NCBI RefSeq assembly: GCF_003334355.1
Contig: NZ_QOWP01000039.1
Length of the DNA stretch: 30,913 nt
Strand: one strand, 5' to 3'
Source of the DNA: Escherichia coli
Lineage (GTDB): Bacteria > Pseudomonadota > Gammaproteobacteria > Enterobacterales > Enterobacteriaceae
Position numbers and translations under genes: made by a program. This document shows, piece after piece, positions 14,290 through 14,358 of the stretch (within the stretch, counting starts at the first letter, position 1; each line of letters starts with the position of its first letter). The notes beneath the pieces were generated by a model, which saw only the letters and a program-made list of their open reading frames with translations, was not told the origin of the DNA and searched no databases.

Positions 14290-14314
14290 TAAGTCATATA
14301 TGTTTTTGACTTAT
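14290..14314 (+). promoter_or_regulatory. Candidate ArsR operator/promoter of the ars operon
   Basis: Inverted repeat taagtca-N10-tgactta (14290-14313), with TTGACT as a -35-like hexamer, about 45 nt upstream of the arsR ATG. Confidence 0.35.
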
Positions 14315-14358
14315 CCGCTTCGAAGAGAGACACTACCTGCAACAATCAGGAGCGCAAT

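Follow-up and report, generated by a model that had tools for sequence, protein, structure and literature searches.

The arsRBC locus and its promoter

The window analysed here, by which we mean the whole stretch of 30,913 nucleotides, is a piece of Escherichia coli chromosome: a 701-bp query taken from it is 100% identical to strain ATCC 8739 and to many other strains, and its genes follow the order rlmJ-gor-dinQ(-)-agrA-agrB-arsR-arsB-arsC-yhiS. The three ars genes are contiguous on one strand (+), and their products all score above the curated NCBIfam cut-offs and carry the corresponding RefSeq annotation. The first gene, arsR (14359-14712), encodes a 117-aa As(III)-sensing repressor of the ArsR/SmtB family (NF007528, 233.1 bits against a cut-off of 97; also NF033788, 96.4 bits against a cut-off of 55), arsB (14766-16055) encodes an arsenite/antimonite efflux permease (NF011980, 730 bits) and arsC (16068-16493) a glutaredoxin-dependent arsenate reductase (NF007456, 305 bits). 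Translation of 14359-14712 contains the motif ELCVCDLC with the arsenite-binding triad Cys32, Cys34 and Cys37, and the C-V-C motif recurs in all listed ArsR relatives except one, a truncated open reading frame (ORF). A tblastn search of the whole window with plasmid ArsD and ArsA found no homologue of either (best E = 6.4), which confirms the view, taken earlier from the sequence alone, that this is the three-gene chromosomal form of the operon without arsD or arsA.

The neighbourhood of the operon is likewise familiar. Upstream, agrA (13894-13977) and agrB (14125-14208, plus strand) both match the Rfam AgrB family (RF02891; 106 and 108 bits, respectively), the latter also in agreement with MG1655 annotation. 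Together with the type I toxin gene dinQ (minus strand, ~13536-13619, coordinates inferred from the ATCC 8739 annotation), these antisense sRNA genes lie between gor and arsR, as in K-12. The agrB gene forms the upstream boundary of the ars control region, and it ends in an intrinsic terminator (a stem-loop and T-run at ~14178-14208, plus strand), the sequence of which is given in the supplement of PMC9134189. Since agrB ends at 14208, the ars control region comprises the ~150 nt from the agrB terminator to the arsR ATG at 14359. The counterpart of yhiS, which in MG1655 is a split pseudogene, is an ORF of 407 aa downstream of arsC (17122-18345); it matches no NCBIfam family, and the ATCC 8739 annotation has it as a hypothetical protein. 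Rfam matches to the small RNAs GadY (29493-29606, 150 bits), ES205 (23643-23714, 105 bits) and ES036/CssrF (5075-5115, 42 bits) indicate that the window extends into the acid-fitness island.

Over 171 nt upstream of and into arsR, the control region matches K-12 MG1655 with 100% identity. It was the MG1655 promoter with which Chen et al. (2022; PMC9134189) worked, and Table S2 of that paper, which also lists the agrB terminator, assigns a -35 hexamer TTGACT and a -10 hexamer GACACT that map to 14306-14311 and 14329-14334 on the plus strand, with a 17-nt spacer between them. Both elements recur in relatives: TTGAC(T) stands right after the dyad described below in the related loci with this architecture, and a -10 of the form GA(C/T)A(C/A)T is kept at the same spacing in plasmid and chromosomal relatives. 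Transcription is predicted to start at ~14341, and the Shine-Dalgarno sequence AGGAG of arsR (14348-14352, plus strand) is invariant in an alignment of five upstream regions. An 8-nt repeat (TCCTGATT/AATCAGGA, at 14210-14217 and 14344-14351), the second arm of which overlaps the arsR ribosome-binding site, was judged to be due to chance. A simple sigma-70 promoter and terminator scan did not return the ars promoter in its output because GACACT fits TATAAT at only three of six positions, and the miss says nothing against the promoter.

The text and Table S2 of PMC9134189, citing Xu, Shi and Rosen (1996), give a 33-bp ArsR site in the MG1655 ars promoter, ACACATTCGTTAAGTCATATATGTTTTTGACT(T), delimited by DNase I footprinting. 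This published K-12 footprint, as given there, maps directly onto the present stretch at 14280-14312 and covers the -35 hexamer, so that the comparison with a footprinted ArsR operator proposed by the sequence-only reading comes out in its favour, as does its claim that ArsR represses its own synthesis from a site over the arsR promoter. That reading was, however, already known: ArsR binding in this region, the -35 and -10 assignments and induction by arsenite and antimonite are published, and autorepression relieved by arsenite is textbook knowledge here. From agrB through the start of arsR the sequence is identical to the K-12 chromosomal ars operator and promoter, with the same ArsR site, the same -35 and -10 and the same arsRBC order; there is no difference, and we are dealing with the same locus in another strain, one closest to ATCC 8739. 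The stretch is therefore the well-studied promoter and repressor site of the E. coli chromosomal arsRBC operon, the best-characterised arsenic-responsive promoter and the basis of many arsenic biosensors, and to this the observation as originally given adds nothing new.

The inverted repeat and a conserved dyad upstream of arsR

What had drawn attention to the control region was a 7-bp inverted repeat, TAAGTCA-N10-TGACTTA, said to overlap a -35-like TTGACT upstream of arsR. Direct reading and a repeat search both place it exactly there, with the left arm TAAGTCA at 14290-14296, a 10-nt spacer (TATATGTTTT) and the right arm TGACTTA at 14307-14313, 46 nt upstream of arsR. The arms are 100% complementary, the -35 hexamer overlaps the right arm by 5 nt, and the pattern occurs only once in the window even when up to two mismatches are permitted (shuffled sequence gives 0.05 matches on average, and at least one match in 5 of 100 shuffles). 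As a generic class, the repeat is statistically not compelling: any perfect 7-bp inverted repeat with a spacer of 0-20 nt turns up in ~9% of simulated 100-bp stretches of the same composition, and the window holds 143 of them where ~46 are expected. Because such repeats are common by chance, this one is meaningful only in the light of external evidence. All of its bases bar the last lie within the published site, and an ArsR dimer sitting on the -35 hexamer could in principle read the repeat itself, around a centre at 14301.5; the perfection of the repeat and its uniqueness in the window speak for this possibility, its frequency by chance speaks against it, and the comparative evidence presented below leads us to consider it improbable.

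Comparison with relatives was based on ten ars operons from PLSDB as the plasmid sample and, for chromosomes, on 120 stretches from one DNA-pattern scan of representative genomes with the conserved codons for GKWVHYR of arsR. We located arsR by tblastn, extracted 89 upstream regions with duplicates removed, and trained a symmetric 26-bp matrix on 77 non-Escherichia arsR upstream regions, such that no Escherichia sequence was part of the training set; the search was seeded from one hand-picked site and converged in two rounds. The matrix was used instead of a plain multiple alignment of five upstream regions, in which the -35 hexamers became aligned and the operator was blurred. Its consensus is AACAtATaTG-N6-CAtATaTGTT, with A4, A6, T7, G10, C17, A20, T21 and T23 nearly invariant. 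Throughout the 30.9-kb window only two sites exceed 9 bits, one upstream of arsR at 14279-14304 (TACACATTCG-TTAAGT-CATATATGTT, 28.3 bits, centre 14291.5), the recognition dyad that we propose for ArsR, and one downstream of arsR at 14724-14749 (29.5 bits), to which we return below; the third-best site scores 8.8 bits, the mean is -53 and the registers neighbouring the upstream dyad fall below -13. The upstream dyad is an imperfect 10-6-10 element (the same 26 bp can be written as 12-2-12), in which six of the ten arm pairs are complementary in K-12; a single nucleotide separates it from the -35 hexamer. Of the orthologous loci scanned, 82 have a counterpart upstream of arsR. Thus, 14279-14304 is a 26-bp imperfect inverted repeat of the ArsR/SmtB type, situated in the promoter region and conserved among orthologous operons. 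The published footprint begins one base inside the left edge of this dyad and is off-centre relative to it, extending 8 bp past the right edge, over the -35 hexamer.

The perfect repeat does not share this conservation. Its left arm corresponds to positions 12-18 of the proposed dyad, that is, to spacer positions 12-16 plus C17 and A18, the first two bases of the right half-site, and its right arm, located beyond the dyad, amounts to little more than the -35 hexamer (bases 2-6, plus two more bases). The two bases that make the repeat perfect, G14293 and T14294, fall on the non-conserved spacer positions 15-16. Their equivalents are AC in O157:H7, PapM-32-1, ST131 and E. whittamii, in which TAAACCA replaces TAAGTCA, and AA in Escherichia locus L114, which has TAAAACA. 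The left arm thus differs at two of seven positions in O157, the B2 strains, PapM-32-1 and E. whittamii, and the strains with a differing arm keep an intact arsR, the B2 strains excepted. The exact 32-mer of the K-12 type is present in 3365 of 5426 complete E. coli genomes (~62%), and the region in some form in 5423. Across the 35 loci with TTGA(C/T) after the dyad, the 7-10-7 repeat has a mean of 3.1 of 7 matches and reaches 7 of 7 in the K-12 type only, the equivalent arms on R46/R773-like plasmids match at 2 of 7 positions, so that the repeat is without an equivalent there, and with the family matrix the register of the repeat (14290-14315) scores -47.7 bits. A partial match of the form CA...TG does recur among the relatives, because C17-A18 is conserved and the TG belongs to TTGAC, but the 7-10-7 repeat was not found to be a conserved symmetric element. 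The operator claim of the sequence-only reading accordingly stands with respect to location and function, given the published ArsR site, and its implied choice of TAAGTCA-N10-TGACTTA as the operator dyad is not supported. The relatives point instead to a dyad centred 10 bp further upstream, and the repeat is probably not the element that ArsR recognises; it seems to be mostly a by-product, its perfection arising from two dyad-spacer bases that are present in some E. coli lineages only.

Published truncations of the MG1655 site bear on the same question. In the part of PMC9134189 that describes them, the binding site was trimmed from its upstream end, from 33 bp to 32, 30, 27 and 24 bp, and repression efficiency rose with the length of the site between 24 and 33 bp. 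The 24-mer, TTAAGTCATATATGTTTTTGACTT according to the primers of that paper, keeps essentially the whole repeat and has lost the left half-site; by this account repression is poorer through a 24-bp site containing the repeat than through the full 33 bp. The result agrees with a contribution of the left half-site, 14280-14288, to binding.

Some evidence pulls in the other direction. The off-centre footprint, the imperfect arms of the K-12 dyad and the hand-picked seed of the matrix all count against the dyad as the element read. In addition, Xu and colleagues are said to have reported in 1996 hydroxyl-radical contacts at TCAT and TTTG, summarised as a TCAT-N7-TTTG consensus. In K-12 these would presumably be 14294-14297 and 14305-14308, and their midpoint of ~14301 is closer to the centre of the repeat (14301.5) than to that of the dyad (14291.5), as would be expected if ArsR read the repeat. 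We note that CATATATG is its own reverse complement, by virtue of which the right half-site of K-12 can be aligned directly with the left half-site of R773; the consensus may, to speculate, have arisen from such a right-half/left-half alignment of K-12 with R773. A literature search for the TCAT-N7-TTTG consensus gave nothing relevant, and the subject of Permina et al. (2006) is MerR-family regulators, not ArsR motifs.

Taking these observations together, we regard it as probable that the region is the sigma-70 promoter and ArsR operator of arsRBC, identical to that of K-12, and that ArsR reads the dyad at 14279-14304 and not the repeat. An ArsR homodimer, a winged-helix protein of the ArsR/SmtB family, would bind TACACATTCG-N6-CATATATGTT, one base before the -35 TTGACT; with protection of 14280-14312 reaching across the hexamer, bound ArsR would hinder RNA polymerase and block recognition of the -35 by sigma-70. 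Since arsR is the first gene of the transcript, repression at this site would be autorepression and would constitute a negative feedback loop. Binding of As(III) or Sb(III) to Cys32, Cys34 and Cys37 in the DNA-binding domain would then cause ArsR to leave the DNA and allow arsRBC to be transcribed. The bases read by ArsR, and promoter occlusion as the mechanism, are what we infer in this scheme.

A further possibility is that both elements are used, with one ArsR dimer on the dyad and a second dimer, or an extended wing contact, next to the -35 hexamer, in which case the perfect repeat would strengthen the second contact in strains of the K-12 type. Such an arrangement would account for the 33-bp footprint with its overhang over the -35; it has an analogy in the two-dimer binding by which other ArsR/SmtB proteins, SmtB and CzrA, occupy one operator, and it would fit with retention of the perfect repeat in the majority of E. 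coli genomes noted above. DNase I footprints, however, normally overshoot the recognition sequence by several bases, and apart from the promoter hexamer there is no conservation signal beyond the dyad, for which reasons we hold the use of both elements to be more doubtful still than recognition of the repeat by itself. That the repeat serves a role unrelated to ArsR, as the site of another regulator or as a DNA or RNA hairpin, has its symmetry alone to recommend it and is scarcely credible, considering that the repeat is not conserved, has no Rfam match and lies upstream of the inferred transcription start and hence is absent from the ars mRNA, with agrB terminating at ~14208. With ArsR taken to read the dyad, the comparative data suggest to those engineering or modelling this system that the recognition element differs from the eye-catching perfect repeat, and the natural variation of that repeat among E. 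coli lineages could matter to them as well.

Operator arrangements in related ars loci

The arsRDABC operon of R773/R46 is unlike that of the window in that it has five genes, arsD and arsA being present, but its ArsR is ~75% identical to the one encoded here and carries the same Cys triad. Its promoter has the same TTGACT-N17-GAYAMT layout, with the centre of the dyad 67 nt before the arsR ATG, as here. The upstream dyad of the R46/R773-like plasmid, ATCATATGCG-TTTTTG-GTTATATGTT, is much weaker, at 9.6 bits, and ends 2 nt (here 1 nt) before the -35 hexamer. We take it to be the stretch of R773 that Wu and Rosen reportedly footprinted in 1993, from -64 to -40. On the R46/R773-like IncN plasmid (L006), this weak upstream site lies at 4900-4925, and a strong site of 22.8 bits is found between arsR and arsD (5346-5371).

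Elsewhere in the ArsR/SmtB family, operators of the 12-2-12 type are described for smt, czr and cad (Busenlehner et al., 2003, as cited in PMC6555750 and PMC7606416). These too are 26-bp imperfect dyads, situated within or beside the promoter of the operon that encodes the winged-helix dimer which binds them, and metal binding brings about derepression. The Zn and Cd sensors are quoted with a TGAA/TTCA-type core, unlike the half-site here, ACAtATaTG. The position of the site differs from that in Pseudomonas putida, where the ArsR1 and ArsR2 sites lie over the -10, whereas the site here is upstream of and against the -35.

Among the relatives examined, some loci depart from the arrangement of the window. 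Genomes of the B2/ST131 type, represented by E. coli ST131 strain 4433 (locus L007, 3001-3135), have a deletion that takes in arsR and the greater part of arsB. The -10 is lost, and arsC is intact and preceded at ~60-80 nt by the ArsR dyad TACATATTCGTTAAACCATATGTGTT (29.0 bits) and the -35 TTGACT. With arsR deleted and the dyad retained, arsC in this type stands behind an orphan operator without ArsR. The same partial match is seen in ~1048 of 5423 E. coli genomes. In Proteus, Providencia, Morganella, Moellerella and one metagenome-assembled proteobacterium, a -35-like TTGAC(A/G) lies inside the 6-nt spacer of the dyad, for example in AACACATATGgTTTGACagATATGTA (loci L019, L024, L046, L051, L053, L057, L060, L061, L065, L072, L074, L079, L106, L124 and L128; also L015), and this placement within the dyad, rather than after it, is a different operator-promoter geometry. 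Loci with an ArsR of the 106-aa type, the gene for which is divergent from arsH on the two plasmids examined, show a third geometry, with the dyad centred ~30-37 nt upstream of the ATG.

A second ArsR-type dyad between arsR and arsB

The best match to the matrix in the window lies at 14724-14749, between arsR and arsB. This second dyad, AACACATATG-AATTTT-CAGATGTGTT (AACACATATGAATTTTCAGATGTGTT as a whole; 29.5 bits), starts 11 nt past the arsR stop codon (14710-14712); 16 nt lie between its end and the arsB ATG at 14766, and its centre is 445 bp from that of the first. In the ORF list, arsB begins at a GTG at 14745, within the second dyad; we favour the ATG at 14766, which gives a protein of 429 aa, on the basis of RefSeq and of the Shine-Dalgarno sequence GGGAGG at 14756-14761.

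In 85 orthologous loci, arsR is followed by a site scoring 15 bits or more, and 77 loci have the upstream site as well. The genera represented include Escherichia, Citrobacter, Klebsiella, Enterobacter, Yersinia, Serratia, Hafnia, Rahnella, Pantoea, Proteus, Providencia and Morganella. None of the ten plasmid ars operons examined lacks the second dyad, which in the R46/R773-like one stands before arsD, and the second site is conserved across Enterobacterales. The typical distance from the arsR stop codon to its start is ~13 nt, and the median distance from its end to the next start codon is 8.5 nt; stray matches of at least 15 bits number only two in ~790 kb of flanking sequence. The base frequencies of the second and upstream sites correlate with r = 0.93, a figure that is partly circular because the same matrix selected both; the positional recurrence of the second site is not circular.

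The second dyad can be folded as RNA (-15.8 kcal/mol, z = -2.9), and we considered an RNA hairpin as the explanation of its conservation. Arm complementarity is, however, no higher in the second sites than in the upstream ones, which in most loci precede the -35 hexamer (57% versus 67% Watson-Crick pairs), and G:U-type and A:C-type mismatches are equally frequent in them, at 11% each. Together with the base frequencies, this pattern looks like protein-DNA recognition and not like an RNA hairpin, which we therefore treat as secondary. An internal arsB promoter at the second dyad was rejected, no convincing -35/-10 pair being discernible there by eye.

We therefore single out the second dyad as a candidate auxiliary ArsR operator and as the only lead from this analysis that is possibly new, one predicted from conservation and matrix score. 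In the literature searched, no natural second ArsR site downstream of arsR is described, only engineered ones: an extra ArsR site placed downstream of arsR is a known way of cutting the background, or leaky expression, of biosensors by blocking transcription. Like the natural dyad at 14724-14749, the engineered site stands exactly between arsR and the gene that follows; unlike it, the natural dyad is native and conserved across Enterobacterales, and its recognition by ArsR is a prediction. We tentatively propose that enterobacterial ars operons carry a native second ArsR operator after arsR, which would work as a roadblock to transcription or as a partner in looping, although we would sooner expect this proposal to fail than to hold. 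If it is true, the second operator would keep the transporter genes tightly off and still allow basal expression of arsR. As a corollary, the true ArsR half-site would be ACAtATaTG in a 10-6-10 dyad, and in the classical alignment of the K-12 operator with that of R773 a right half-site would be set against a left one. Should ArsR bind the second site, the native circuit would already possess the auxiliary operator that biosensor designers introduced against background, and constructs that drop the 26-bp element would behave differently from those that keep it, a point that could matter to those engineering or modelling the system.

Also conserved in many loci is the A/T-rich stretch of ~13 nt that leads from the arsR stop codon to the second dyad; it reads TAAAAATTTAGC here and AAAAAATTTGCC in many of them. 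This stretch and the left half of the dyad (14710-14735 in the window) together score as a weak, overlapping third site, at 8.8-21 bits.
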